Both the position numbers and the translations under genes were made by a program. The notes beneath the pieces were generated by a model. It was not told the DNA's origin. It was given only the letters and a program-made list of their open reading frames with translations, and did no database searches. Positions 1,731 to 16,038 of a stretch of DNA of 32,000 nt are shown here, piece after piece. Origin of the DNA: Methylorubrum extorquens. Its GTDB lineage: Bacteria; Pseudomonadota; Alphaproteobacteria; Rhizobiales; Beijerinckiaceae. The stretch covers positions 4,500,001 to 4,532,000 of the forward strand of contig LT962688.1 of the NCBI GenBank assembly GCA_900234795.1. Reading direction: 5' to 3'. Each line of letters starts with the position of its first letter. The first letter of the stretch is position 1.

Positions 1731-2352
1731 TCACGCCGCTGTCACAGCAAAGCCGCGACTCATGGCGACAGCTCCTCGCGGCGATGTTGATGTCGGAAGC
1801 GTGAAACCGGCCGTTGCCGGGCTGGAAGCGGCTTTGATCGCTGCGCCGCAGACGAAGGGGTTCTGCTGATTGCCCAAGCCCCCACAAGTCAGGGTAGCCC
1901 CGTGCACACTGAAGCGTGAGCCGTAGATCAGAGAATTGGTGCCACCAATCCAGAGCCGGTTTCCGCCGTCCCGTGATGCCAGCCGTCCTGCCCCCGAACA
2001 GTCTGAGGAGCGTCGTCGCTTCACGCCCAGCGGCGCCGCGCACGACAAGCGCGAGTTCCCCGCTGATGTTGGGCTTAGTCCGGTAGAGAAGGCCGCTCGG
2101 CAGCCAGAGGATCCCGTCCTGCGTCGTCTTGTTGATGACGCACTGAAGCGCGACCTCGTCCACCTCGTTGGTGAGGGCTGTGACCGGGTTGCGCTCCTTT
2201 GGTAGCGTTGTAAACCAAGTAGAATGCCTGCCACTGTGCCAGCGTATAGCCGGTCGTGTTGGTGCCATTGGCCGCTGTGATGCTCGACAGCAGATTGGTG
2301 GTGCACAGGCCGCAACCGTTCGCCTTCCCACCATAGGCGTAGAACTCGGCGA
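1731..2352 (-). pseudogene. Decayed ORF of unknown function, readable only by joining three minus-strand frames; N-terminus apparently cut off by the adjacent IS remnant
   Basis: Protein-like segments lie in three different frames. They are [54 protein letters not shown], then VTALTNEVDEVALQCVINKTTQDGILWLPSGLLYRTKPNISGELALVV, then GGNRLWIGGTNSLIYGSRFSVHGATLTCGGLGNQQNPFVCG. The N/T/Y/W/K-rich composition is atypical for off-frame high-GC noise. No family is assigned; a lectin-like WIGG...FVCG pattern is only a guess. Confidence 0.35.
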
Positions 2353-2389
2353 TGTCTTTCAGAGGCAGTGACGCTCTGAATGGAAGGCG

Positions 2390-2745
2390 AGCCGGGCAGC
2401 TTGTTCGCCAAGCTGCCAAGCAGGCGATCGGTGATGCGGGTCGAAGCCGGATAGCCACCGACGACAGCGTCGAGATCGCCTTCGTCGATCGGGGCTACAC
2501 CGGCGGGAAGCCGGCTACGGCGGCGCGCAAGCACGGCATCGAACTTGAGGTCGTGAAGCTGCCCGAGGCCAGCTCGGCCCTCATCCTCAGCCTGTCGAAG
2601 GACGTGCTGCTGCCCAAGCGCTGGGTCGTCGAGCGCTCCTTTGCCTGGGCCACCGGCTTCCGCCGGCTCGGCAAAGACTGCGAGCGATATGCCAGCGCGC
2701 CGGCAGACCTGCACCGTCGTTGCCTTCGTCTGCCTCATATTCAAA
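2390..2745 (+). mobile_element. IS5-family transposase, C-terminal remnant only (pseudogene)
   Basis: The translation [35 protein letters not shown]...[35 protein letters not shown] matches the conserved C-terminal DDE region of IS5-family transposases (VDxGYTG ... [13 protein letters not shown] ... RRLxKDYE). No N-terminal half is present. An AT-rich stretch at 2741-2790 follows, where an IS end would lie. Confidence 0.7.
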
Positions 2746-2821
2746 AAACTTGCTCTACTTACAGCCGATTAATAACAGCCTCTACGCGTTCCTTCAGCGC
2801 TCCAACTCGAAGGACTCGGCG

Positions 2822-3433
2822 TCAGAGCTTGATTCCAATCCCACGGTTCAGGCGGGTGACGATCCAGACCGTCGCCACGGCCACGCAAACGCCCCAGCCG
2901 ACTTCCAGCACCCGCGACCCGGCCATGCGCTCCACCGGCCCGACATGGGGCACGAGCAGAATAATCGTGGCGGTGATGCTCGCGATACGGCACGCACTCG
3001 AGACATTGACGAGCCAACAGGCAAGGGTCGCGAGCAGGACAGCCGATGCGTAGGTCGGCAGGGAGGGGCCGAGCGAGAGGTAGGCACCGAGACCGGCGGC
3101 TCCGCCGATCAAAGCGCCCGTGAGTTGGTCGCGGGCGGTGGAGCGAGTGGTGTCGAACTCGGTATGGGCGACGGCGACCGCTGTGATCGCCGCCCAGAAG
3201 CCCTCACGCAGGCCGAGCAGATGGGTCGGCAGGTATGCGGCGATGGCGGCGACCGCGGAGATGACGCCGTGGGCGAAGCCGCCGACGAAACGGCGGCGTA
3301 GGGGCAGGCGCTTGCGCAGGCGGGTGAACTGCGCGCCGAGCAAGCGGATTCGGCTGGTGTCGCGGTCGACCCGGCGCACCGGCGCCGCGGCGGTCTCGTC
3401 CTCGGCACGGCATGCCGAGTCTTCGGCCTGCAT
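2822..3433 (-). CDS. FUSC/aromatic-acid-exporter-like small integral membrane protein
   Basis: This is a 203-aa ORF. An Arg-rich N-terminus is followed by several hydrophobic helices ([36 protein letters not shown]...), typical of FUSC-like domain proteins. The family call is from memory of that pattern. Confidence 0.6.
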
Positions 3434-3577: not shown

Positions 3578-3838
3578 TCCGAACGCACCCGCCACATCCC
3601 CATGGCTCAGGGCGATAAACGCTGACCGCGCTGCGACGCCATGAGTTCATCCGCTCTCTTGGCGGACGCCGTAAAGCGCCTCGCCTCTCGTTGCGGCCCC
3701 TGTGCCCTCATCGGGAGCGACGACGTAAGCCGTCACCTCGTCGCGCGAGCAAGCGATGCCGTTCTTCGTCTTGGACCTCGATCGAGGCGGCGAAGGCTTT
3801 GAGAGCCGATGCCGCCTGCTCTCCATCGAGCCTCGCGC

Positions 3839-4571
3839 TCAGTTGGACTTCGGATCGGTGACCGTGAAGGCGAAGGTCGCGCCGTAGCTGTCCGCGTCGG
3901 CCAGCGCCGGCGTCTGCGAGGGGGCTGACGCGGTGAGCGACGCCGAGCACCTGCGGGCCGGCACTGCGCAGCGAGACGACCGCCACGCCCTGAGCATCCG
4001 TCGTGGCGCGGGCCTGATCCGCCTCGCTCTTGAAGTTCACGCCGTCGGTGGCGACCACGCTGGCGCCGTCGAGCGGACGGCCCTCGAACAGCACCCGCAC
4101 CCGGATCTGGCCCGAGGCTGCGGTCGGCTCCTCCAGCGGGACGATCTCCAGCGGTTGGCCGACGATCTTGTCCCACGGGGCCGTCGGGCCGGATACGGCC
4201 TTGGCGAACTTCACCGACCAGAGGCTCTTGTCGGCCTGCGGCAGCATCCGCTTGCTGGCGTTGCGGTAGCTGCCGTCGGGCAGGCGCACCCAGTAGCCGT
4301 TGTCGTAGGACGCGGCGAACAGTGCGTCGCCCTGATGCGCGGCTTTGAGCGCGGGCATTGCGCCGGTCTGCAGCTTGGCATTCAGGGCCACCGCGCCGGA
4401 CGGCTCGTAGGCGGTCAGGCTCATCAGCTTGCCAGCACTCGGCAGTTCCGGCTCGTGGGGATGCCCGTAGAGAATCTGTACGCCGTTGCCGGCCGGGTCG
4501 AGCCAGAGGTCGTGGGCGGCGGCCGGTGCGGTGAGGGCGAGCAGCGCGGTGAGGATGACGGTTCGTCTCAT
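3839..4571 (-). CDS. DUF4198-domain periplasmic protein (nickel/cobalt-uptake-associated family) with an apparent +1 frameshift at the G5 run 3920-3924
   Basis: The ATG at 4569-4571 is followed by a signal peptide MRRTVILTALLALTAPAAAHDLWLDP. After ...GVAHRVSP the in-frame reading becomes Arg/Gly junk. The adjacent frame reads SQTPALADADSYGATFAFTVTDPKSN and stops at 3839-3841. The span is 733 nt (3n+1), consistent with one extra base. Confidence 0.75.
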
Positions 4572-6682
4572 CGAAGAGGTGCTCCTGTTGCAAAGCTGGA
4601 GGTGATGCCGGCCAGCAGCGTCAGGCGCGGCTGCGGGCTGGTGAAGATCTCGGCGACCGAGGCAGAGACCGATGAGCCGAAGTTGAAGATGCTCTCGCTC
4701 GTGCGGTCGCCGGGATACCAAGTCGCCTGCCCGTAGGTCGTCCAGCCGCTCTGGTGGACGTAGGCGATCCGGCCGCTGACGCGCGGATAGGGCGAGGAAT
4801 GCAACACGCCGTCCTCGGTCAACGGCTTGGCACCGATGTAGGACAGGTAGGCTGCACCCGTCAGGCGCCCGCCGGGCAACAGGGCGGCCGGCGCGGCGAC
4901 GTCGAATTCGGCGCCGACGGTGGCAAGATACGCCGGCACGTTGGGGATGAAGATGGATGGCACGCCGTTGAGCAGTCGGGCCGAGACGCCCGAATAGTTG
5001 GCGAACAACGCCACGCGGTCGAGGCCTTCACGATAGGCCAGCACCTTCGCCTCGATTTCGAAGCCGTCGCGGCGGGACTTGCCCAGGTTCTGCACGGGCA
5101 GGCCGGGTGCAGGCTGGAAGACCTCGTTGGCGATGTTGGTGAAGAACACCGTGCCGAGGAGACTGAACCGGTCGAACACGAGGCGGCCGCCGCCCTCCGT
5201 ACTCTCGACGGTCAGCGGAGTGAGGCGGGGATTGTTCGTCAATTCGCTCGAAGCGGAGGGGCTGCGGAAGCCCTGGCCGTAATTGGCGAACAGCTCCAGC
5301 CAGTCGAAGGGCGTGAGCGCCGCCCCGCCCTTGGGGGAGACCACGTTGGGGCTGACCTTGGGCGACAGGGCCGGGTCGAGATTGTTGCGCACGTCGTAGA
5401 AGAACTGGTCGAAGCGGGCGCCGCCGGTCAGCTTCAGCCAGGGCGCCGGCTTGACCTGCACCTGCGCGTAGGCCGCGAGGTTGTGCTGCGAGAGATCGAG
5501 ATCGAGGGTGCGTGCGGTGAACGTGCGCGCGACCGAGGGGCCGGTGTTCACGTCGAGCGCGTCGCTCCGCCAATCGCCGCCGACGAGGACTTGGGTCGGG
5601 AGCGCGTCGAACAGGCTCGTCGTCCAGACCTTGCGGATGCGGCCGCCCACGGTCTCCCGTTCCTCGACCTGCCCGCGCTGGCCGGCGCCGAAATCCGAGA
5701 AGCGGCTGAACACGTCGTGGCTGGCGTAGAGAAGCGCCGACAGCTCGTCGTCCGGCCCACCGTTGATGTAGTTGGCCACGAAGGTCTGCAGGGTCTTGCC
5801 GCCGCCATCGGTGATGTTGGTCGCGGCCCGCGGTGAGACGAGACCGGCGCGCACGCGGTCGCGCTCCAGGTAGCCCGGCTGCCCGAAGCCGGTGCCGTAG
5901 ATCTGCACCCGCAGCGACAGGCTGGAGCCGAGATCGAGGGGGATGGTGACCTTGTTGAAGGCGTTGTAGCGCCCGAGATCGCCGTTCTCGCGATAGCCCC
6001 CGGTGCCGTAGCCTTCGTAGGCGAGGAAGGGCTGGATCCCCGGGCCGAACTGGCTGAAGGTGGCAAGCCCCCGCCCCGTGCCGAACGAGCCGCCCGATGC
6101 GCCGACGGTCGAGAAGGGCTCGGCCCGCTTGGTCTCGATGTAGATCGAGCCGCCGAGATTGGCGTCGCCCGCTTCGACCGAGAAGGGGCCGCGCACGATG
6201 CTGATGGAGCGGATGGTCTCCGGGATCAGCGGATTGAGATCGACGTAGTTCGGGGTGTGGATCGAGGAGACCTCGTTGATCGGCACCCCGTCGATGAAGA
6301 CCGCGACGTCGCGGCCATGCTCGGCATCGCTGAAGCCGCGCAGGGCGATGCCGTATCCGACGCCGCCCTGGCCGTAATTCGAGACATCGAAGCCGGCCAC
6401 GGGGCGGAAGAGGTCGCCGTAGCTTTGCACCGGCAGGCGAGCGATCTCCGCGGCATCGATCACCGTGCTGTTGCCTGGGAGAGCCAGGACCGACGATGAG
6501 ATCTGGGTCTTCAGGTTCGCGGCCGGCCCCGCAACCGCCGCAACGGAATTTGCGGAACCGCCCTGCGCGGTGACCTGCAATTCCTCCAGCTCAATCGCGG
6601 TCGGATCGAGCGCATGGCTCGGAAGCGTACTCACGCCGAGTGCGCTGGCCGATGCAAGCAGGCGCGTCAAAAGCGGCGACAT
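4568..6682 (-). CDS. TonB-dependent outer-membrane receptor
   Basis: The start is taken at MSPLLTRLLASASALG... (ATG 6680-6682), which gives a signal peptide. The plug-domain pattern ...VIDAAEIARLPVQSYGDLFRPVAGFDV...RGF...FIDGVPIN... is present, followed by a long beta-barrel region. The stop TGA overlaps the DUF4198 ATG as ATGA at 4568-4571. The 79-aa upstream extension in the ORF track is not protein-like. Confidence 0.85.
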   Translation of the reverse strand: MSPLLTRLLASASALGVSTLPSHALDPTAIELEELQVTAQGGSANSVAAVAGPAANLKTQISSSVLALPGNSTVIDAAEIARLPVQSYGDLFRPVAGFDVSNYGQGGVGYGIALRGFSDAEHGRDVAVFIDGVPINEVSSIHTPNYVDLNPLIPETIRSISIVRGPFSVEAGDANLGGSIYIETKRAEPFSTVGASGGSFGTGRGLATFSQFGPGIQPFLAYEGYGTGGYRENGDLGRYNAFNKVTIPLDLGSSLSLRVQIYGTGFGQPGYLERDRVRAGLVSPRAATNITDGGGKTLQTFVANYINGGPDDELSALLYASHDVFSRFSDFGAGQRGQVEERETVGGRIRKVWTTSLFDALPTQVLVGGDWRSDALDVNTGPSVARTFTARTLDLDLSQHNLAAYAQVQVKPAPWLKLTGGARFDQFFYDVRNNLDPALSPKVSPNVVSPKGGAALTPFDWLELFANYGQGFRSPSASSELTNNPRLTPLTVESTEGGGRLVFDRFSLLGTVFFTNIANEVFQPAPGLPVQNLGKSRRDGFEIEAKVLAYREGLDRVALFANYSGVSARLLNGVPSIFIPNVPAYLATVGAEFDVAAPAALLPGGRLTGAAYLSYIGAKPLTEDGVLHSSPYPRVSGRIAYVHQSGWTTYGQATWYPGDRTSESIFNFGSSVSASVAEIFTSPQPRLTLLAGITSSFATGAPLR

Positions 6683-7321
6683 CGTGCAACCTAGGCACTC
6701 AGTGATCCGGGCGCTACTAAACTGCAAATTATGGGCAGGCACAAGATAGGAATTTTTCGTATTCGTACGTCTCATCGAGATGTTGCAGCCTTTAGCAGCC
6801 CCCGCAATCTCGGTCGCAGCATCTTTTGACGATAACCGTCTCGGTAAAATTGCCTCCCTTAGAGCATCGGTGCTGATACGGCGTGGCATGTCCTGCCGGC
6901 CACCAAGTCTTCGGCCCATCAGGCGCGAAACGTCTTCGAGGCCAGTGGCTTCTGAGCTTCACGTCGTACGATGGCCGGAGGCCATCGCAGCCGGAGCAAC
7001 GGCCCCAAAATCGAACATCCCGATGCGGGGCAGAGCGATCCTTACAACTCTCGCGTCGCAACTCGATGTACCTCCTGCTCAGAAATGGGGAAACCGTTCG
7101 GCGCCGAGGCCGGACGTGTGACCGGCCGCCAAGCTCAGCGCGAATTTCCCTTTATTGCAACAACTTATGAGCGAAATTGATCATTTGGATAAGTAATACC
7201 CCGTATTCAAACTGGGCTAGCCACGTTCGTTAAGTTGCTGCTATAGGTTGAAAACAAGATATGTTCTGGGTGCCAATAAATCGGCTGCTAAGGCAGGCTG
7301 TATTCGCTCGGGAAGCTGCCC

Positions 7322-7624
7322 ATGCACTTTACTCAACGCGAAACTGACAAGCTGCTGATCTATATGCTCGCCCAGGTCGCGCAGCGCCGCAGGGACCAGG
7401 GGCTCAAGCTCAACCATCCGGAAACCGTCTCCCTCATCTCCGTCGCCGCCCTGGACGGCGCCCGCGCCGGCAAGACGGTGGAAGAAGTGATGGAACTCGC
7501 AGGCAAAACCATCACGCGCGACGACGTCATGGACGGGGTCGCGGAGATGATTCCCTACGTGCAGGTCGAAGCGGTGTTCACGGACGGCTCGCGCCTCATC
7601 ACGGTGCATGCTCCCATCAAGTAA
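7322..7624 (+). CDS. ureA: Urease subunit gamma
   Basis: The 100-aa product [34 protein letters not shown]...[13 protein letters not shown] has the canonical UreA length and motifs. Confidence 0.95.
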
Positions 7625-7648
7625 ATCGAGATGTCAGGAGGTGACGCG

Positions 7649-8059
7649 ATGAGTCCTCCCCAGAAGAAGGCGCCCGTCGGCGGAATTATTTTCGGATCAG
7701 GGGATATCGAGATCAATGCCGGATATCCGACCACAGCGATCAAGGTCCGAAACACGGGTGACCGCCCAATCCAAGTCGGATCGCACTACCATTTCTTCGA
7801 GGTGAACGCCTCGCTCGAGTTCGATCGCGAGCAAGCCTTCGGCAAGCGTCTCAACATCCCGGCCACGACCGCTCTGCGGTTCGAGCCCGGAGACGAGAAG
7901 GAGGTCTCGCTCGTTCCCTATCAGGGCAAGCAGCGGGTGCTCGGCTTCAATGGCCTCGTCGACGGCTGGGTCGGCGACGAAACCTACGACGATTACCGCC
8001 CACGGCTGTCGGACGCGTTGGATCGCGTGAACCGCTACGGGTTCAAGAACAAGCCGTAA
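7649..8059 (+). CDS. ureB: Urease subunit beta, extended form (N- and C-terminal extensions)
   Basis: The core GDIEINAG...[19 protein letters not shown]...[13 protein letters not shown] is present. The start at 7649 is preferred because AGGAGG (7636-7641) lies 7 nt upstream; the ORF track start at 7631 is the alternative. The C-terminal tail ...[31 protein letters not shown] extends beyond the usual ~100-aa UreB. Confidence 0.9.
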
Positions 8060-8095: not shown

Positions 8096-9814
8096 ATGAG
8101 CAAAATCTCGCGGCGGCAATACTCGGATCTCTACGGGCCGACGACAGGCGACAAGATCAGGCTCGCCGATACGGACCTCTACATCGAGATCGAGAAGGAT
8201 CTTCGCGTCTATGGCGAAGAGGCCGTCTATGGCGGCGGCAAGACGCTTCGGGACGGGATGGGTTACGACAACGAGTTGACCAGTGCGGCGGGTGCACCGG
8301 ATCTCGTCATCACCAATGTCACGATCCTCGACGCGGTCCAGGGCGTCATCAAGGCCGATCTCGGCATCAAGAACGGCCTGATCGTCGGGATCGGGAAGGC
8401 CGGCAATCCCTCGACGATGTCGGGGGTGACACGGGGGCTCGCGCTCGGACCGGGCACGGACGCCATTTCCGGCGAGCACCTCATCCTGACTGCGGGCGGC
8501 ATCGACGCCCACGTCCACTTCATCTCGCCGCAGCAGGCCCAGGCCGCGCTCAGCAACGGCGTGACGACGCTGTTCGGCGGCGGCATCGGTCCGTCCGACG
8601 GCACCAACGGCACGACCATCACGCCGGGCACGTGGAACATCGAGATGATGCTCCGCTCCTTCGATGCCTGGCCGGTCAATGCGGGCGTGCACGGCAAGGG
8701 CAATTGCTCGGCGCTCCTCCCGATCGAGGAGCAGATCCGGGCCGGCGCGATGGGTTTGAAGGTTCACGAAGACTGGGGCAGCACCCCGGCGGCGATCCGC
8801 ATGGCCCTGACCGCTGCGGACGATCACGACGTCCAAGTCTGCATCCACACGGACACCCTGAACGAGGCGGGTTTCGTCGAGAGCACCATCGCCGCGTTCG
8901 AGGGGCGCACGATCCACACCTACCACACGGAGGGCGCGGGCGGCGGCCACGCCCCGGACATCATCCGGGTGGCGGGCATTTCCAACGTCATCCCCAGTTC
9001 GACCAATCCGACCATGCCCTACGGCATCAATTCGCAGGCCGAATTGTTCGACATGGTGATGGTCTGTCACAATCTCAGTCCGAAGATCCCGACGGACGTC
9101 GCCTTCGCGGAAAGCCGCGTCCGCGCCGAGACCATCGCGGCGGAAAACGTCCTGCACGATCTCGGCGCGATCTCGATCCTGTCGAGCGACAGCCAGGCCA
9201 TGGGCCGCGTCGGCGAGAACTGGGCGCGCACCATTCAGACGGCTCATCTGATGAAGGCGCGGCTCGGTGCCTATCCGGGGGATGCCTCCGGCAACGACAA
9301 TCAGCGCGTGCTGCGCTTCGTCGCCAAGGTGACGATCAATCCCGCCATCGTGGCGGGGGTCTCGCACGTGATCGGATCGGTCGAGGTCGGCAAGATGGCG
9401 GACCTCGTCCTCTGGGAGCCGGCCTTCTTCGGCGCGAAGCCGAAGATGGTCATCAAGGGCGGCATGATCTCCTGGGCGATCATGGGAGACCCCAACGCCT
9501 CGCTGCCGACACCGCAGCCGGTCGTCTATCGTCCGATGTTCGGCGCTCTCGGCCCGGCCGTGGCCAAGACACGCGTGACCTTCACGTCTCATGCCGCCTA
9601 CGAGGACGGGATCGTGGATCGTTACGAGCTGACGTCCAAGGTCGTGCCCGTCTACGGCACGCGCACCATCACCAAGGCGTCGATGGTTCGAAACGACCGG
9701 CTTCCGGTCATCGAGGTCAACCCGGAAACCTTTGCGGTGATGGTCGACGGCAAGCATGCCACGATCGAGCCCGCCACGCATCTTCCGCTCGCGCAGCTCC
9801 ATTTCTTCAGCTGA
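8096..9814 (+). CDS. ureC: Urease subunit alpha
   Basis: The 572-aa product contains [16 protein letters not shown]..., the GGIDAHVHF nickel-ligand motif, [10 protein letters not shown] and MVCHNLSP, which are typical of UreC. Confidence 0.97.
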
Positions 9815-9875
9815 CGTCCCGTCGCGCGGCGGGAAACGCCTCCCGCCGCCGGTTCACAGCCCGGTGCAGGCATTG

Positions 9876-10259
9876 ATGAGACCGATCGACGTCATGTGGG
9901 TGTGTCTGGGCGGCGGAGCCGGTTCTCTGCTGCGCTGGCAGCTCGGCGGCTTCATCGACCGCGCGATCCCCGCGCGCTTCAAGTTCGGCACCTTCCTCGT
10001 CAACGTCACCGGCGCCTTCGCCATCGCCTATCTCTCCGCGGCGCTCGCGCTCGGCTGGCAGCAGCGCCACGGGGACGTGGTCTCATCTCTGGTTCTGACG
10101 GGCTTTCTCGGCGGCTACACAACATTCAGCTCAATGCAGCTCGATACGGCGCAGATGGCGATGGAGCATCGCCAGGGGCTCGCCGCCCTGTACCTCGTCG
10201 CGTCCGTCGGCGTCGGCCTCTGCGCCGCGGCGGCGGGCGTCGCCCTCGCAAGATCGTAG
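9876..10259 (+). CDS. crcB: Fluoride ion channel CrcB/Fluc, paralogue 1
   Basis: About 127 aa with four hydrophobic helices. The N-terminal motif is GGGAGSLLRW and the TM3 motif is GGYTTFSSM. The start is ATG 9876, with 9894 as an alternative. The ORF track start at 9756 overlaps the ureC 3' end and was discounted. Confidence 0.85.
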   Translation: MRPIDVMWVCLGGGAGSLLRWQLGGFIDRAIPARFKFGTFLVNVTGAFAIAYLSAALALGWQQRHGDVVSSLVLTGFLGGYTTFSSMQLDTAQMAMEHRQGLAALYLVASVGVGLCAAAAGVALARS

Positions 10260-10268
10260 GGGCTCGTC

Positions 10269-10652
10269 ATGGGGGCGCAGGCCGTCTTCGTCTTCATCGG
10301 TGGCGGGTTCGGCGCTCTCACCCGCGAATTCCTCATGCTGCTGATCCCTCAGCACAGCGGCGCCTTTCCGCTCGACATCTTCACCGCCAACGTCGTCGCC
10401 TCGTTCTGCCTCGGCGCCGCCTTCGAACTTCACCGCCTGAACCAAGTCTCGGACGAGTATCTGCTCCTGATCGGCACGGGCTTCGCCGGCGGATTGTCGA
10501 CGTTTTCGAGTTTCGTCTACGGCATCACTTCCGAAGCCGCGTCGCCGGGCCAAGCCGGTCTTGCCGTCCTCTACTGTTTGTCCAGCCTGATCGTCGGCTA
10601 CGCCGCGATCTGGCTCGGAATCGCATCCGGGAAACGCCTGCGACGCGCGTGA
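10269..10652 (+). CDS. crcB: Fluoride ion channel CrcB/Fluc, paralogue 2
   Basis: 127 aa with GGGFGALTRE near the N-terminus and GGLSTFSSF in TM3. It starts 9 nt after paralogue 1. Confidence 0.85.
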   Translation: MGAQAVFVFIGGGFGALTREFLMLLIPQHSGAFPLDIFTANVVASFCLGAAFELHRLNQVSDEYLLLIGTGFAGGLSTFSSFVYGITSEAASPGQAGLAVLYCLSSLIVGYAAIWLGIASGKRLRRA

Positions 10653-10675
10653 GCGCGCTCCGTTGGGAGAGACGA

Positions 10676-11332
10676 ATGATCCTCGTCGAACACAAACTCG
10701 GTCATCTCGGCGATCCGGTCTGGCAGGAGCGCGCGGGGCAGGCGCGGATCGATCCGCTGGTGCTGGAGCAATGGGAGGCGCCCAAGAGCCGCCTGCGCAA
10801 GGCCAGCGAAAACGGGATCGAGCTGGCGATCTCGCTGCCGCGCTCCGAGCACCTGCATGACGGCGACGTGCTCCACTACGACGCGGCGCAGGGGCTCATC
10901 GTCGTGGCCCGGATCGCCCTCAAGGAGGTGCTGGTCATCGAGCTGGAGGGGCTGGAGAGCCTCGCACCGCACGAGATCCTGCGCGCCAGCTTCGAACTCG
11001 GGCACGGCCTCGGCAACCAGCACTGGCCCGCGGTGATCAAGGGATCGACGGTCTACGTGCCGCTTTCGGTCGATCAGAAGGTGATGGCCTCGGTCATGCG
11101 CACGCATGCCTTCGCCCATGTAAAGACGCGCTTCACCCCGGGCGAGGAGGTGGCGGCCAAGCTCGACGCGAAGGAGGTGCGGCTGCTCTTCGCCGGCGCG
11201 GACGCCACCCCACACCACCATCATGACGGTCACGACGCTGCACAGGCTCATGATCATCACGACCACCCTGATCACGCGCACGATCATGGCCATCCGCACG
11301 CGCATCATCACCACCATGATCCGGTGGCGTGA
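10676..11332 (+). CDS. ureE: Urease accessory metallochaperone UreE with a His-rich tail
   Basis: The ATG at 10676 is preceded by GGGAGAG. The translation MILVEHKLGHLGDP...ELGHGLGNQHWPAV... is UreE-like. The last 41 residues contain 19 His (...[41 protein letters not shown]). The 478-aa ORF-track version (9896..) is an off-target upstream extension. Confidence 0.9.
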   Translation: MILVEHKLGHLGDPVWQERAGQARIDPLVLEQWEAPKSRLRKASENGIELAISLPRSEHLHDGDVLHYDAAQGLIVVARIALKEVLVIELEGLESLAPHEILRASFELGHGLGNQHWPAVIKGSTVYVPLSVDQKVMASVMRTHAFAHVKTRFTPGEEVAAKLDAKEVRLLFAGADATPHHHHDGHDAAQAHDHHDHPDHAHDHGHPHAHHHHHDPVA

Positions 11333-12054
11333 TGCGGCACGGTGAGCCGAGGGCCCGTCTCGCACCGCGCGGCATGGCTCATCTCGCGCGCCTGCTGCAA
11401 TTCTCCGATTCGACGCTGCCGATCGGCTCCTTTGCTTTCTCGAACGGCCTCGAATCCGCGCTGCAGACGGGGATCGTCACCGACACCAGCAGCCTGCTGC
11501 ATTTCGTCGAACTCGTCCTGCACCAGAACGCCCGGGTGGATGGCGTCGCGCTGCTGCACGCCCATCGCGCCACCCTGGCGGAGGACTATTCCGGCATCGT
11601 CACCGCCGACCGGGAATTGCTCTGCCGCCGCGTCGGGGAAGAGCAGCAGCTGATGCTGACGCGGATGGGCAAGAAGCTCGCCGAGCTGGCGCTCAAGATC
11701 GGCCCCTCGCCGGTGCTGGAGCGCTGGCTCGCGGATATCCGGTCGGACACCACCCCCGGCTGCCTGCCGATCGGTCAGGCGATCACCCTCGCACATCTCG
11801 GCGCGGACGAGACGGACGCCTTCGTCGTCCACCAATACGGCATGGCCTCGATGATCCTGAGCGCCGCGCTCCGGCTGATGCGGATCGACCATTTCGAGAC
11901 CCAGCGCATCCTGTTCGCCGCCCAGGACCGCGTCGAGGACGACTACCTCGCCGTGCGCGATCTCGCCCTCGACGAGATGGCCGCCTTCGCGCCGGTCTTC
12001 GACGTGCTCGTTGCTCATCACACCACGGTCCATGTCCGCCTGTTCATGAATTGA
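11329..12054 (+). CDS. ureF: Urease accessory protein UreF
   Basis: [23 protein letters not shown]... is the UreF signature. The start overlaps the ureE stop (GTGATG). A downstream ATG ([10 protein letters not shown]) is an alternative start. Confidence 0.88.
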
Positions 12055-12074
12055 GTGCGGCAAAGGAAATCGAG

Positions 12075-12722
12075 ATGAAGAAGATCACCCGTATCGGCAT
12101 CGGCGGCCCGGTCGGCTCGGGCAAGACGGCTGTTATCGAGACCATCACGCCGCGCCTGATCGCGCTGGGGATCAAGCCGCTGATCATCACCAACGACGTC
12201 GTGACGACGGAGGATGCCAAGCAGGTGCGCCGGACTCTCCACGGCGTGCTGATCGAGGAGAAGATCGTCGGCGTCGAGACCGGGGCCTGCCCACACACGG
12301 CGGTCCGCGAAGATCCGTCGATGAACATCGCCGCGGTCGAGGAGCTCGAAGACAAGTATCCCGACAGCGACGTGATCCTGATCGAATCTGGCGGCGATAA
12401 CCTCACGCTCACCTTCAGTCCGGCGCTGGCGGACTTCTACATCTACGTGATCGACGTCGCCGCCGGCGACAAGATCCCGCGCAAGAACGGCGCCGGGGTC
12501 TGCCAGTCGGATATCCTCGTGATCAACAAGAAGGACCTCGCCCCCTATGTCGGCGCGAGTCTCGAGGTCATGGCGCGCGACTCCAAGCTGATGCGCGGCA
12601 AGAAGCCGTTCCTCTTCACCAACTGCAAGACCGGCGAGGGCGTCGACGACCTCCTCCAGCTCATTCTCGACATGGCGCTGTTCGATGTGAGGACGCGTCC
12701 TCCGCTCGCGGCGAGCGCGTGA
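12075..12722 (+). CDS. ureG: Urease accessory GTPase UreG
   Basis: [20 protein letters not shown] (P-loop) and ...[15 protein letters not shown]... are present. ATG 12075 has AAGGAAA 7 nt upstream. The TTG at 12051 in the ORF track overlaps the ureF stop and is less likely. Confidence 0.93.
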
Positions 12723-12726
12723 GACC

Positions 12727-13662
12727 ATGACCCTGCACGAGCCCCTCGGCCTCATCGACGCGGCGCGCGAACTGCGCGGGTTCCAGACCGAGCCGGCGCA
12801 GATGCGGGCGGGCGCGCCCGGCAAGGTCGGCCGCCTGCGTCTCGGTTTCTCGCTGCGCGATGGACGCTCCGTGCTCCACGACCTCTACCGGGTCGCCCCG
12901 CTGCTGGTGCAGCAGGCGCTCTACTGGGACGAGGCGATGCCGGAATTGCCGGTCTGCCCGATCATCTCGGTCGGCGGCGGCATCCTGCAGGGCGACCGCT
13001 ACACGATCGACATCGCGGTGGGGGAAGGCGCCTGCGCGCACGTCTCCACCCAGGGCGCCAACCGCATCCACTGCATGGACGCGAACTACGCCTCGCAGCA
13101 CCAGACCGTGACCGTCGCGGCCGGCGGCTATCTCGAATACTTGCCGGACTTCACCATTCCCTATCGCGGCTCGCGCTTCCTCTCCCGCACGGACCTCGTC
13201 GTCGCCGCGGACGCCACCCTGCTCTACGGCGAGATGGTCCTTGCCGGCCGCAAGCATCATCATGTCGAGGAGCGGTTCGGCTTCGACCTGCTGTCGATGG
13301 ACGTGAGCCTGCGCCGGCCCGGCGGGCACAAGCTCTTCGCGGAAAAGATCCTGATCGAGAAGGGCGATCCGACGATCGCCTTTGCGGCGGTGATGCGGGG
13401 CTTCGACGCCTTCGCCAACATCCTCTGCGTCACCCCTCCCGAGACGGCCGCCCGCATCAAGGAACGGTTCGAGCCCCATTTCCCGATCGAGGCACCACGG
13501 GCGCTGTCCGGTGTGAGCCGCCTGCCCAACGCCGCCGGGCTGATGCTGCGCGCCGTCGGCGTGGAGACCTACGACGTGCGCCACGAGGTTCGCCGGTTCT
13601 GGCGCATCGTGCGCGAGGAGGCGCGCGACCGGTCTCTTCCCGCCGAACCCTATTGGCGCTGA
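12727..13662 (+). CDS. ureD: Urease accessory protein UreD/UreH
   Basis: The 311-aa product contains ...GGGILQGDRYTIDIAVGEGACAHVSTQGANRI...LEYLPDFTIPY..., typical of UreD. It starts 4 nt after the ureG stop. Confidence 0.88.
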   Translation: MTLHEPLGLIDAARELRGFQTEPAQMRAGAPGKVGRLRLGFSLRDGRSVLHDLYRVAPLLVQQALYWDEAMPELPVCPIISVGGGILQGDRYTIDIAVGEGACAHVSTQGANRIHCMDANYASQHQTVTVAAGGYLEYLPDFTIPYRGSRFLSRTDLVVAADATLLYGEMVLAGRKHHHVEERFGFDLLSMDVSLRRPGGHKLFAEKILIEKGDPTIAFAAVMRGFDAFANILCVTPPETAARIKERFEPHFPIEAPRALSGVSRLPNAAGLMLRAVGVETYDVRHEVRRFWRIVREEARDRSLPAEPYWR

Positions 13663-13677
13663 GCGAGGACCGGACCC

Positions 13678-14706
13678 ATGGCGCGCGCGAACAGCAACCT
13701 TCTCGTCCAGTCGCTGCGCGGGACGAGCCAAGTCTTTTTCATGGAGAATGCCCTGACGGGCGTGCTGTTCTTCGCCGCAATGGCCTACGCCTCGTCGGTG
13801 ACGGGCCATTGGGCCACCACGATCGGGGCGGCGATCGGCGTCCTCGTCGCAACGCTGACCGCACGACTTCTGGAATGCGACGACCCCTCCGTCTCCTCCG
13901 GTCTCTACGGATTCAACGGCGTTCTCGTCGGCGCCGCGCTTCCGACCTTCATCGCAGTCTCGCCCCAGCTCTGGGCCTCGATCGTGATCGGCGCGGCGGC
14001 CAGCACGGTCTTCACCGCCGCCTTCAGCGCGACGCTCACCGGCAAATGGGGCATTCCCGGCTCGACGGGCCCCTTCGTGCTGACGGGCTGGCTGATGGTC
14101 GCCGCAGCCTATTCCTTCGGCGGCCTGCACGTGACGGGCGATGCCCCCAAGCTCGCGGGCGATGTCGCGCCTAACCTCACCTGCATTCCGGCGCCAATGG
14201 ACCTCGTCGCGATCTTTTTCCGCAACATCGCGCAGGTCTACCTGCTGGGCAGCGCCGTCAGCGGCGTCATCATCCTGGCCGGCATCCTGATCGCCTCGGT
14301 CCCGGCCGGAATCGCCGCCGCCGCCGGATCGCTGATCAGCATGATCGTCGCGATGGCGATGGGGGCCGATCCCAAGGCCGTGAGCCAGGGCCTCTACGGC
14401 TTCAGCCCGGTCCTGACGGCGATGGCCGTCGGCGTCATCTTCCTGACGCCCTCGCCGCGGGTGGCCCTCTATGCCGGTCTCGCGACTGTGATGACCGTCT
14501 TCGTCCAGGGCGCGCTCGACGTCATGGTCGCGCCGGCGGGCATCCCGTCCTTCACCGCCCCCTACGTGCTGACGATGTACCTGTTCATCGCGCCGAAGAA
14601 GCTGATGGCGCCCCATCCGCACGGGCCCGTCGCCGATCCCATGATCGACGATCAAGGCAAGGTGCCGGGCAAGGCACCGGTCCACGCAGCTGGAACCGCA
14701 CGGTGA
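13678..14706 (+). CDS. Urea transporter (UT family, Yut/UreT-like)
   Basis: The 342-aa polytopic membrane protein has the N-terminal LRGTSQVFFMENALTGVLFF motif typical of UT-family urea channels. GAGGA lies 8 nt upstream of the ATG. Confidence 0.85.
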   Translation: MARANSNLLVQSLRGTSQVFFMENALTGVLFFAAMAYASSVTGHWATTIGAAIGVLVATLTARLLECDDPSVSSGLYGFNGVLVGAALPTFIAVSPQLWASIVIGAAASTVFTAAFSATLTGKWGIPGSTGPFVLTGWLMVAAAYSFGGLHVTGDAPKLAGDVAPNLTCIPAPMDLVAIFFRNIAQVYLLGSAVSGVIILAGILIASVPAGIAAAAGSLISMIVAMAMGADPKAVSQGLYGFSPVLTAMAVGVIFLTPSPRVALYAGLATVMTVFVQGALDVMVAPAGIPSFTAPYVLTMYLFIAPKKLMAPHPHGPVADPMIDDQGKVPGKAPVHAAGTAR

Positions 14707-14799: not shown

Positions 14800-16038
14800 A
14801 TGCAAGGCATCAATGCCGGCGACACGGCCTTCATCCTCATCTGCACCGCTCTGGTCCTCATGATGACGCCGGCTCTTGCCCTCTTCTACGGCGGCCTCGT
14901 CAGACAGCGCGATGTCCTGTCCGTCATGATCCAGAACTTCGTCTGCATCGGTGTGGTCGGCGTGATCTGGGTGTTCGGAGGTTTCAGCCTCGCCTTCGGG
15001 CCTGATATCGGCGGCACGATCGGCAATTTCGCGTATTACTTCGGCATGTACGAGGTCGGCATCGAGCCAAATCCGGTCTACGCGCCGAACATCCCCTTCA
15101 TCATGGTCTTTGCCTACCAGATGATGTTCGCCATCATCACGCCGGCCCTGATGACCGGCGCCTTCGTCGGACGCTTCCAGTTCGGCGCCTACCTGTTCTT
15201 CATCACGGCCTGGACCATCCTCGTCTATGTGCCGGCCGCGCACTGGGTCTGGGGCGGCGGCTTCCTGGCCAAGCTGGGCGTCGTCGATTTCGCCGGCGGG
15301 ATCGTCATTCACACCTCCGCGGGTTTTTCGGCGCTGGCGACGGCGAAGTTTCTCGGCAAACGCAGGGTGGCGGCGGGCGAATCCGAATCCGCGCCGGCCA
15401 GCCTGCCCCTGGTCGCTCTCGGCGCCGGTCTGCTGTGGTTCGGCTGGTTCGGCTTCAACGCCGGTGGCGCCTACGCGGCGGATGCGCTGGCGGCCTACGC
15501 CTTCACCAACACCATGCTCGCCGGTTCCATCGCCATGCTGGTGTGGATGTTCTGGGAATGGCGCGAGACCAAGCACCCGTCCTTTTCCGGCGTCCTCGTC
15601 GGCGCCGTGGCGGGGCTCGCGACGATCACGCCGGCCTCCGGTTATGTCGAGCCCATCGCCGCCCTGGCGATCGGTGCCATCGGCGCGACGGCCTGCTACT
15701 TTGCGAAGTACGTCCAGAAGTGGCTGAAGATCGACGACACGCTGGAAGTCTGGCGCGCCCACGGCGTCGGCGGCCTCACCGGTGCCCTGCTCATCGGCAT
15801 CATGGCCAGTTCGCATATCAACCAAGTCTCGGCGAGCCTGCAGCAGTTCGGGGTTCAGCTTCTCGCCGTCCTCGTCGTCGGTGCTTATGCCTCCTTCGTC
15901 ACCTTCATGATCCTGACGGGCCTGGATCGCTTCGGCACGCTGCGGGTGCCGGAAGAGATCCAGGAAGAAGGCCTCGACACGATGCTCGGCGAGCGCGCCT
16001 TCAACCTGTGGAACATGGATCGCACCCTCCCGAAGTAG
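14800..16038 (+). CDS. amt: Ammonium transporter (Amt family)
   Basis: The 412-aa product contains DTAFILICTALVLMMTPALALFYGG, ...VDFAGGIVIHTSAGFSALA... and ...WFGWFGFNAGG..., which are Amt signatures. AGGAG lies 7 nt upstream. Confidence 0.93.
   Translation: MQGINAGDTAFILICTALVLMMTPALALFYGGLVRQRDVLSVMIQNFVCIGVVGVIWVFGGFSLAFGPDIGGTIGNFAYYFGMYEVGIEPNPVYAPNIPFIMVFAYQMMFAIITPALMTGAFVGRFQFGAYLFFITAWTILVYVPAAHWVWGGGFLAKLGVVDFAGGIVIHTSAGFSALATAKFLGKRRVAAGESESAPASLPLVALGAGLLWFGWFGFNAGGAYAADALAAYAFTNTMLAGSIAMLVWMFWEWRETKHPSFSGVLVGAVAGLATITPASGYVEPIAALAIGAIGATACYFAKYVQKWLKIDDTLEVWRAHGVGGLTGALLIGIMASSHINQVSASLQQFGVQLLAVLVVGAYASFVTFMILTGLDRFGTLRVPEEIQEEGLDTMLGERAFNLWNMDRTLPK

Follow-up and report, generated by a model that had tools for sequence, protein, structure and literature searches.

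Fluc (CrcB) proteins are well understood, and their physiological wiring is known chiefly via the fluoride riboswitch. The locus described here raises the question of why two genes of this family lie inside a urease operon and what they might do there. A first-pass annotation of the window (the whole stretch of DNA that was analysed, 32,000 nt) had placed two CrcB genes between the ureC stop at 9814 and the ureE start at 10676, and open reading frame and Pfam analysis bore out all of these coordinates.

Organization of the urease cluster

The cluster and the genes upstream of it are arranged as follows.

2822-3433, minus strand: short FUSC-family open reading frame, upstream of the cluster
3708-4721, minus strand: DUF4198 protein, upstream of the cluster
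4568-6919, minus strand: TonB-dependent receptor, upstream of the cluster
7322-7624, plus strand: ureA, urease gamma subunit (PF00547, E 5.4e-39)
7631-8059, plus strand: ureB, urease beta subunit (PF00699, E 3.4e-43)
8096-9814, plus strand: ureC, urease alpha subunit (PF00449 and PF01979)
9826-9849, plus strand: G+C-rich 9-bp stem-loop just 3' of the ureC stop (RNA fold)
9876-10259, plus strand: crcB1, Fluc subunit 'A', 127 aa (PF02537, E 4.7e-23; match to Fluc-Bpe in the PDB, E 8.6e-7)
10269-10652, plus strand: crcB2, Fluc subunit 'B', 127 aa (PF02537, E 4.6e-22; NCBIfam NF002455)
10676-11332, plus strand: ureE, with a His-rich C-terminus seen in the translation (PF02814)
11329-12054, plus strand: ureF (PF01730)
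12051-12722, plus strand: ureG, GTPase (PF02492)
12727-13662, plus strand: ureD (PF01774)
13678-14706, plus strand: urea transporter of the UT/Yut type (PF03253, E 2.1e-80)
14800-16038, plus strand: ammonium transporter (Amt), final gene of the cluster (PF00909)

All seven genes of a complete urease operon, ureABC plus ureEFGD, were matched by Pfam on a single strand, and their order, ureABCEFGD with the gene for a UT-family urea channel (Pfam) behind it, is that of the yut type; the orthologue of the window's urea transporter is annotated yut in RefSeq. The recomputed gaps amount to 61 nt (ureC-crcB1), 9 nt (crcB1-crcB2) and 23 nt (crcB2-ureE). The next gene after the urease cluster is mfd, and a transposase fragment is present in the window at 2352-3053.

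A tblastn search showed the proteins of the window's ure genes to be 100% identical to those of contig LMNP01000012.1 (assembly GCA_001423385.1), while among the matches listed in the genome scan Methylobacterium sp. Leaf123 is the nearest named relative. The same layout was found on at least ten independent contigs with an identical CrcB1 as well as on many diverged contigs, and it is thus neither a one-off nor an assembly artefact.

Distribution of the crcB-urease linkage

The spread of the linkage was followed with a CrcB1-profile scan of one genome per GTDB species, which gave at least 80 loci and was supplemented with six further homologues and two plasmid matches; loci without a urease gene within 8-9 kb were counted as unlinked. 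Among the matches listed, together with look-ups, the CrcB1/CrcB2 lineage occurs in 26 distinct loci, 20 of them urease-linked. Of these, 14 distinct loci among the matches listed have the pair inserted between ureC and ureE, namely the window, Methylobacterium Leaf123, three proteobacterial MAGs, Ancylobacter, Neoroseomonas terrae, an Azospirillum-related metagenome contig (L093), Amorphus, Antarcticirhabdus, a Roseomonas marmotae plasmid, Orrella, Pigmentiphaga and Laribacter. Six further loci among these matches carry it beside a ureABCEFGD-yut cluster, either following the cluster on the same strand (Providencia huashanensis and a P. rettgeri plasmid) or in convergent orientation (Pseudomonas paraversuta, P. 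fragi, Camelimonas and Yersinia aldovae), and the six unlinked loci belong to two gammaproteobacterial MAGs, Morganella, a Chloroflexia MAG, Ochrobactrum and Kaistia. The urease-linked hosts are alpha-, beta- and gammaproteobacteria, with two of the loci plasmid-borne. Not one of 64 other crcB loci among the matches listed has urease genes nearby (Fisher p = 4.5e-15 for linkage within the matches listed, a value that ignores phylogeny).

For the reverse survey, a UreE profile was run against metagenome contigs, which yielded 67 informative ureC/ureE junctions. An insert is present in 15 of these 67, comprising 11 of the 22 junctions whose UreE is at least 65% identical to that of the window and 4 of the 45 from more distant lineages. 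The same A/B motif pattern was found in 14 of the 15 metagenome inserts, the remaining one (L161) giving a partial CrcB2-like match only, and in L123 the pair is located directly upstream of ureA. The linkage flagged in the first-pass annotation therefore recurs, and does so with one CrcB lineage, but it is not limited to the ureC-crcB-crcB-ureE order, as the adjacent loci demonstrate.

Conservation of the linkage in at least four arrangements over three proteobacterial classes argues, at the level of gene neighbourhoods, for a functional tie. As 6 of the 26 clade loci are unlinked and the insert is missing from 11 of the 22 closest junctions, urease does not require the pair, which is accessory to it, and shared descent of a mobile island could partly contribute to the linkage. 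This leads to a different explanation, according to which an ordinary fluoride-resistance pair was inserted once into a mobile island of urease, nickel and ion-transport genes, its co-expression with urease not being adaptive. The island is indeed found on plasmids and is spread over alpha-, beta- and gammaproteobacteria, with UreG 76-96% identical across alpha- and gammaproteobacterial loci; the transposase fragment at 2352-3053 and the 51 of 67 related urease clusters that do without the pair point in the same direction, as do degraded-looking copies, with crcB1 frameshifted in Yersinia aldovae (L023) and unannotated in the P. rettgeri plasmid. We nevertheless regard such hitch-hiking as rather unlikely, given that the linkage is kept in the four arrangements (within the operon, 3' of it on the same strand, convergent to it, and 5' of ureA), is seen also with UreE proteins only 45-55% identical to that of the window (L126, L155, L158), and is confined to one CrcB lineage among the matches listed. 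Moreover, each subunit has pore residues that are invariant across the clade, and both are therefore under selection.

Genes that recur in the island are yut, amt, a CitMHS/SLC13 permease, a K+-channel-like gene, nickel uptake genes with NikR, and FUSC.

Spacers and regulation of the crcB pair

Searches for the fluoride riboswitch (RF01734, Rfam) were negative in the whole window at the gathering threshold, at E <= 10 in 9600-10400 and in 6850-7400 (the ureA leader), in 16 loci of the CrcB1/CrcB2 clade and in all urease-linked loci examined. These negative results carry weight, since the same search recovers RF01734 in three unrelated loci (L027, L064 and L067), in each case immediately 5' of a single crcB gene. 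The earlier impression that the 61-nt spacer holds no such riboswitch was thus confirmed by the covariance model, whereas the accompanying statement that crcB genes are normally controlled by it proved not to be universal, as two further loci (L046 and L084) are also without one. A consensus scan of the spacers revealed no sigma-70-like promoter or terminator-like site, with counts equal to those in shuffled sequence.

RNA folding confirmed the 9-bp hairpin that had been noticed at 9826-9849, which has no T-run and ends 26 nt before the crcB1 start. The hairpin is real but not specific to crcB: stem-loops of unrelated sequence are found 3' of ureC in most loci examined, with and without a crcB insert, and a role as a crcB-specific regulator was ruled out because insert-free clusters carry them as well. 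We therefore assign it to the ureC 3' end, where it most likely acts as an attenuator or partial terminator, or as an mRNA stabiliser, and would thereby tune how strongly the structural genes are expressed relative to the accessory ones. The crcB pair is located downstream of the hairpin and hence in the accessory-gene segment. Spacing within this segment is tight, with crcB1-crcB2 gaps of 9-12 nt in the inserted loci measured and crcB2-ureE gaps of 21-39 nt in nine out of ten of them, the called open reading frames of the tenth (L013) overlapping by 29 nt. Urease depends on UreEFGD, and crcB2 ends 23 nt ahead of ureE; a message for the accessory genes must consequently cross the crcB pair, and the pair and ureEFGD presumably share one transcript. 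Co-transcription with urease genes, as initially proposed, is thus supported for ureEFGD by the common strand and the short gap before ureE.

A second alternative concerns the transcript itself. The stem-loop might end the ureABC message, and a so far unrecognised promoter within or close to the 61-nt spacer might drive crcB1-crcB2-ureEFGD-yut-amt, in which case the channel level would track the accessory genes and not the bulk urease message. Stem-loops behind ureC recur in this urease lineage, those in L092, L104 and L109 being followed by T-runs like intrinsic terminators, and the spacers of insert-free relatives extend to 159 nt, leaving room for promoters. For the window, such a separate unit appears unlikely in view of the missing T-run, the lack of a sigma-70-like site in the spacer scan and the mere 26 nt between the hairpin and the crcB1 start. 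Even so, it would modify rather than replace the main explanation, a heterodimeric channel expressed along with urease, as the crcB genes would still be co-transcribed with ureEFGD.

Two further candidates in this region were rejected. An Rfam match to 5_ureB_sRNA antisense to ureC was judged to be coding-sequence conservation, and the only mobile-element candidate near the insert, a 12-nt exact direct repeat (CGGGAAACGCCT) at 9830-9841 and 10628-10639, is missing in the 94%-identical Leaf123 locus and is therefore probably due to chance.

CrcB1 and CrcB2 as probable subunits of a Fluc heterodimer

Membership of both 127-aa proteins in the CrcB/Fluc family, whose members have ~120-130 aa and four TM segments, was assigned in the first-pass annotation and is borne out by their matches to PF02537 (E ~1e-22 to 1e-23, above the gathering score) and, in a PDB sequence search, to the solved structures of Fluc-Bpe and Fluc-Ec2. 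Only CrcB2 reaches an equivalog model, with 269.8 bits against the cut-off of 153 for NCBIfam NF002455; the score of CrcB1 falls short of each NCBIfam equivalog cut-off for 'fluoride efflux transporter CrcB'. Both carry GGGxGxxxR and either TTFSS or STFSS. A residue table based on an alignment of 112 CrcB sequences places the GxxxR arginine of TM1, the TM2 asparagine (Bpe N43) and the TM3-break motif of the Na+ site (G77...T/S80) in both subunits of all 16 clade pairs. In a neighbour-joining tree, CrcB1 and CrcB2 each form one exclusive clade, and CrcB2 groups with B subunits from Ktedonobacteria.

The two proteins differ in charge distribution, which was expressed as K+R bias from the counts of lysine and arginine in loops. 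The bias of CrcB1 is -1 in the window and -2.1 on average over 16 orthologues, that of CrcB2 +5 and +3.9, respectively, compared with 0 and +1 for the homodimeric Bpe and Ec2. The signs are opposed in 15 of the 16 pairs, the exception being L021 with a CrcB1 value of 0, and the tandem pairing of crcB1 and crcB2 is invariant. The predicted orientation has the N-terminus of CrcB1 out and that of CrcB2 in, the latter protein ending in a KRLRR tail. As opposite K+R bias implies opposite membrane topology and, in consequence, an obligate heterodimer, these features indicate that CrcB1 and CrcB2 are oppositely oriented subunits of one channel, at least as far as their sequences can tell. The earlier suggestion of a heterodimer-type pair thus gained support from both the charge bias and the invariant pairing.

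Pore residues

Each Fluc pore receives its first phenylalanine from one subunit and the second from the other (PMC4969038). At the Bpe positions G38, T39, N43, F82, F85, E88, Y104 and S108, CrcB1 reads G-T-N-F-M-D-Y-S and CrcB2 reads D-I-N-F-F-G-Y-S. Three of the four residues of the Phe box are therefore kept, CrcB1 contributing F84 together with M87 (at the position of Bpe F85 and Ec2 F83) and CrcB2 contributing F79 and F82. The T-E-Y triad is complete in CrcB1 (T39, D90, Y106) and degraded in CrcB2 (I37, G85, Y102); CrcB1 retains the polar pore residues T39, N43, D90, Y106 and S110. While the pore pattern of CrcB1, including the methionine, is invariant over the proteobacterial clade, the second Phe position of CrcB2 has changed to leucine in the Ktedonobacteria pairs, L123 and L126. 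Loss of the pore phenylalanines, which had been named as an observation that would speak against fluoride channels, was thus found at one of four positions, with methionine in its place, and the claim that both proteins have the Fluc motifs stands for the motifs themselves but not for the complete pore, given the incomplete Phe box and the lack of Thr39 and Glu88 equivalents in CrcB2.

By analogy with this arrangement and with FEX, a CrcB1-based pore would have a full polar lining with methionine at the second Phe, and a CrcB2-based pore would have both aromatics without the threonine and the glutamate. Bpe F82 and F85 correspond to Ec2 F80 and F83, and both F83M and F83Y are inactive in Ec2 (PMC5636608); in Bpe, T39V/A/C/N are inactive and E88D is tolerated (PMC8315801). 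As Ec2 F83M and the Bpe T39 variants are inactive, neither pore is canonical by homodimer mutagenesis, and conduction of fluoride by the urease-linked lineage is for this reason an assumption. In FEX, one domain supplies the Thr, Asn, second Phe, Glu and Tyr of the functional pore and the other domain its first Phe (PMC5417652), and the predicted orientation puts Asp90 of CrcB1 at the cytoplasmic end, as is Glu333 of that FEX pore. Probably only one pore is functional, and from the invariance of CrcB1, the drift of CrcB2 to leucine and the orientation of Asp90 we infer that this is the CrcB1-based one, formed by Thr39, Asn43, Met87, Asp90, Tyr106 and Ser110 of CrcB1 and Phe79 of CrcB2.

The unusual pore allows for two other readings. 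One is a dedicated, hitherto unrecognised and ureolysis-specific Fluc subclass with a single working pore in which methionine (or tyrosine) replaces the phenylalanine that all characterised Flucs need, and which would act either as a fluoride valve tuned to the large pH gradient made by urease or as a channel for another small anion that arises or is retained in urea breakdown; we consider this quite unlikely. Fluoride is, to our knowledge, the only substrate demonstrated for the Fluc family. It is very improbable that the non-canonical pore conducts or senses another small anion (cyanate, carbamate, bicarbonate) or gates differently, even though neither pore has the residues needed in Ec2 and Bpe (PMC5636608, PMC8315801), the second Phe of CrcB1 is Met or Tyr in the lineage and the other pore is without Thr and Glu, CrcB1 reaches none of the NCBIfam equivalog cut-offs, the clade loci examined are devoid of a fluoride riboswitch, and cyanate binds at the pore end of Fluc-Bpe with a Ki of ~7-8 mM (PMC8315801): in Bpe cyanate is a blocker and not a permeant ion, selectivity stayed the same in dozens of pore mutants (PMC8315801), heterodimers with three Phe and a Leu or Met (La, Sa) are counted among the Flucs (PMC5636608), and the Na+-site motif, TM1 Arg and TM2 Asn are intact in both subunits.

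Proposed function and significance

On balance, we lean towards a heterodimeric Fluc pair that was recruited to a yut-type urease island and is co-expressed with urease as a fluoride valve against HF trapping. crcB1 and crcB2 belong to a distinct Fluc lineage and, within this island, would be carried on the ureEFGD-yut-amt mRNA and made during urease assembly instead of upon sensing of fluoride; that expression would follow urease assembly is suggested by the absence of an own riboswitch or recognisable promoter at a position 23 nt before ureE. HF would enter through the membrane and be trapped as fluoride in proportion to the pH gradient, which would be maximal with an acidic outside and ureolysis holding the cytoplasm neutral or alkaline. 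Fluoride would then exit via the channel down the membrane potential, so that the dinickel centre of urease and other fluoride-sensitive enzymes would be kept free of it.

This mechanism draws on two published observations, namely that in urease fluoride takes the place of the hydroxide bridging the nickel ions and of a terminal water (reviewed in PMC7433671), and that at mildly acidic pH Fluc channels are needed to offset the build-up of fluoride as a weak acid (PMC4144673). As a urease that has its own urea channel and keeps the cytoplasm above the external pH creates the very gradient that traps HF, a passive exit for fluoride that is co-expressed with the urease maturation genes is coherent, and protection of urease by the crcB module, as first proposed from the gene order, is plausible.

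The first-pass annotation knew of no description of the linkage, and a full-text literature search, with most subscription journals outside its coverage, found no published account of a crcB pair with urease. The genome paper of Laribacter hongkongensis gives LHK_01038 and LHK_01039 only as camphor-resistance genes, and RefSeq labels the genes inside urease operons plainly as 'CrcB family protein'. A mention of crcB in H. pylori was discarded as a precedent because it concerns copper induction and is unrelated. The finding amounts to a Fluc lineage wired to a fluoride-inhibited nickel enzyme in many genera and on plasmids. If the link is functional, urease or urease-driven pH homeostasis would be fluoride-sensitive in vivo to a degree worth its own exporter, and the locus would allow a straightforward genetic test of whether fluoride in the environment restricts ureolysis in soil, on leaves and in gut bacteria. 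It would also provide a natural heterodimer for the contested question of methionine at the second pore Phe, and would bear in practice on fluoride as an inhibitor of urease, both in agriculture and in infections.

Comparison with known systems

Gene order and the UT-family transporter are shared with the Yersinia-type ureABCEFGD plus Yut clusters, to which Brucella ure2 is similar as well. A further resemblance is the proximity of nickel-uptake genes (DUF4198 and the TonB-dependent receptor in the window; NicO, CbiM or NikR in relatives), and the window's proteins are 63-68% (UreC) and 76-79% (UreG) identical to the copies in Providencia, Pseudomonas and Yersinia. The window differs in that the CrcB pair is placed between ureC and ureE and that Amt closes the cluster. 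In gene order the cluster matches the Yersinia-like acid-active type, and its urease may serve acid resistance or nitrogen scavenging in a leaf Methylobacterium. In comparison with the fluoride-riboswitch regulon (RF01734), the same protein family is controlled, whereas expression here appears to be tied to the urease operon.

The two-domain eukaryotic FEX, with one functional and one vestigial pore (PMC5417652), resembles the pair in its asymmetric pores, in the SSFSSMxxE of its N-domain, which recalls TTFSSMQLD in CrcB1, and in the cytoplasmic position predicted for the acidic residue of the CrcB1 pore, as for Glu333 of the functional FEX pore. In FEX, however, methionine is in the vestigial pore, and the Phe, Thr and Glu of the functional pore come from one domain, whereas the Phe, Thr and acidic features are split here over two separate polypeptides.

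The closest counterparts are the heterodimeric Flucs. The pair of Lactobacillus acidophilus (La) reportedly conducts fluoride. Heterodimers with three Phe and one Met or Leu are known or inferred (La, Sa; PMC5636608), and loss of one pore is expected in such channels (PMC5636608, PMC5417652). With La1/La2, Sa1/Sa2 of S. aureus and Mt1/Mt2 of M. tuberculosis (PMC5636608), CrcB1 and CrcB2 share the adjacent genes for proteins of ~125 aa, the opposite charge bias with one pore expected to be degenerate, the TM1 Arg, TM2 Asn and GG-x-(S/T)-T TM3-break motif, and three of the four Phe-box residues with Met as the fourth. They differ in having the methionine in the polar Thr/Asp/Tyr pore and a two-Phe subunit without Thr and Glu, and in being tied to urease clusters, with no riboswitch in the clade loci examined. 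The channel heterodimer itself is of a recognised type with an unusual pore detail.

Tandem CrcB pairs in and outside urease loci

Tandem CrcB pairs carrying the same A/B residue pattern at the pore positions were also recovered from Ktedonobacteria and other Chloroflexota (sampled loci L035, L036, L042, L048, L053 and L068), where subunit A reads G-T-N-F-M-E-Y and subunit B reads D-I-N-F-L-G-Y, and urease genes were absent near all of these pairs. The B subunits of these pairs furthermore clustered with proteobacterial CrcB2 in a neighbor-joining tree, so the heterodimer type predates its linkage to urease.

Further arrangements were encountered among the sampled loci. In L123 (331-1143), a CrcB1/CrcB2-type pair immediately precedes ureA and shares its strand, and L114 (607-897) holds a lone crcB with the canonical FSSF motif upstream of ureA. 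In Pseudomonas fragi (L022, 2603-3749), three matches to the TwoAYGGAY RNA motif were found upstream of the pair and appear unrelated to the crcB-urease linkage.

In Yersinia aldovae (L023, 8001-8338), crcB1 is apparently frameshifted, being covered by two separate tblastn pieces along with an ORF of 52 aa, while on a Providencia rettgeri plasmid (L095, 9001-9282) crcB2 is annotated and crcB1 lacks annotation. Together, these two cases suggest that the pair is decaying in some hosts.

Genomic surroundings of the urease operon

The following genes were located upstream of the urease operon in the window:

2352-3053, + strand, DDE-transposase fragment, overlapping the FUSC/ArAE ORF
2822-3433, - strand, short FUSC/ArAE-family ORF
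3708-4721, - strand, DUF4198 protein
4568-6919, - strand, TonB-dependent receptor

In four relatives, DUF4198 is adjoined by cbiM, three of which have nikR close by as well. The crcB pair has a neighboring FUSC gene in other loci too, namely in Kaistia, with the order FUSC-crcB1-crcB2 and a 21-nt gap, and on the P. rettgeri plasmid, where the FUSC gene follows crcB2 immediately downstream in convergent orientation; on a Roseomonas plasmid, a divergent FUSC gene is situated upstream of ureA.

A CitMHS/SLC13 permease is likewise recurrent in urease islands (L019, L020, L021, L023, L092, L093, L094, L095, L097 and L098), and the gammaproteobacterial islands repeatedly contain a K+-channel-like gene (Ion_trans_2 plus TrkA_N) between the urea transporter gene yut and the crcB pair. 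The recurrence of both genes suggests a wider ion-homeostasis module surrounding this yut-type urease.

Repeat and RNA motifs in the window

An exact 12-nt direct repeat, CGGGAAACGCCT, encloses most of the crcB insert, with the first copy (9830-9841) inside the hairpin that follows ureC and the second (10628-10639) 13 nt ahead of the crcB2 stop. The repeat is absent from the orthologous spacer of Methylobacterium sp. Leaf123 and is probably due to chance.

On the antisense strand of ureC (8249-8546, - strand), the Rfam model RF02514, the 5' ureB antisense sRNA of H. pylori, was matched with 53-72 bits across loci, clearly exceeding the gathering score of 40, and the same place in ureC was matched in L012, L013, L014, L016 and L024. 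While a genuine antisense RNA opposite ureC is possible, the match most likely arises because the H. pylori model spans conserved coding sequence.
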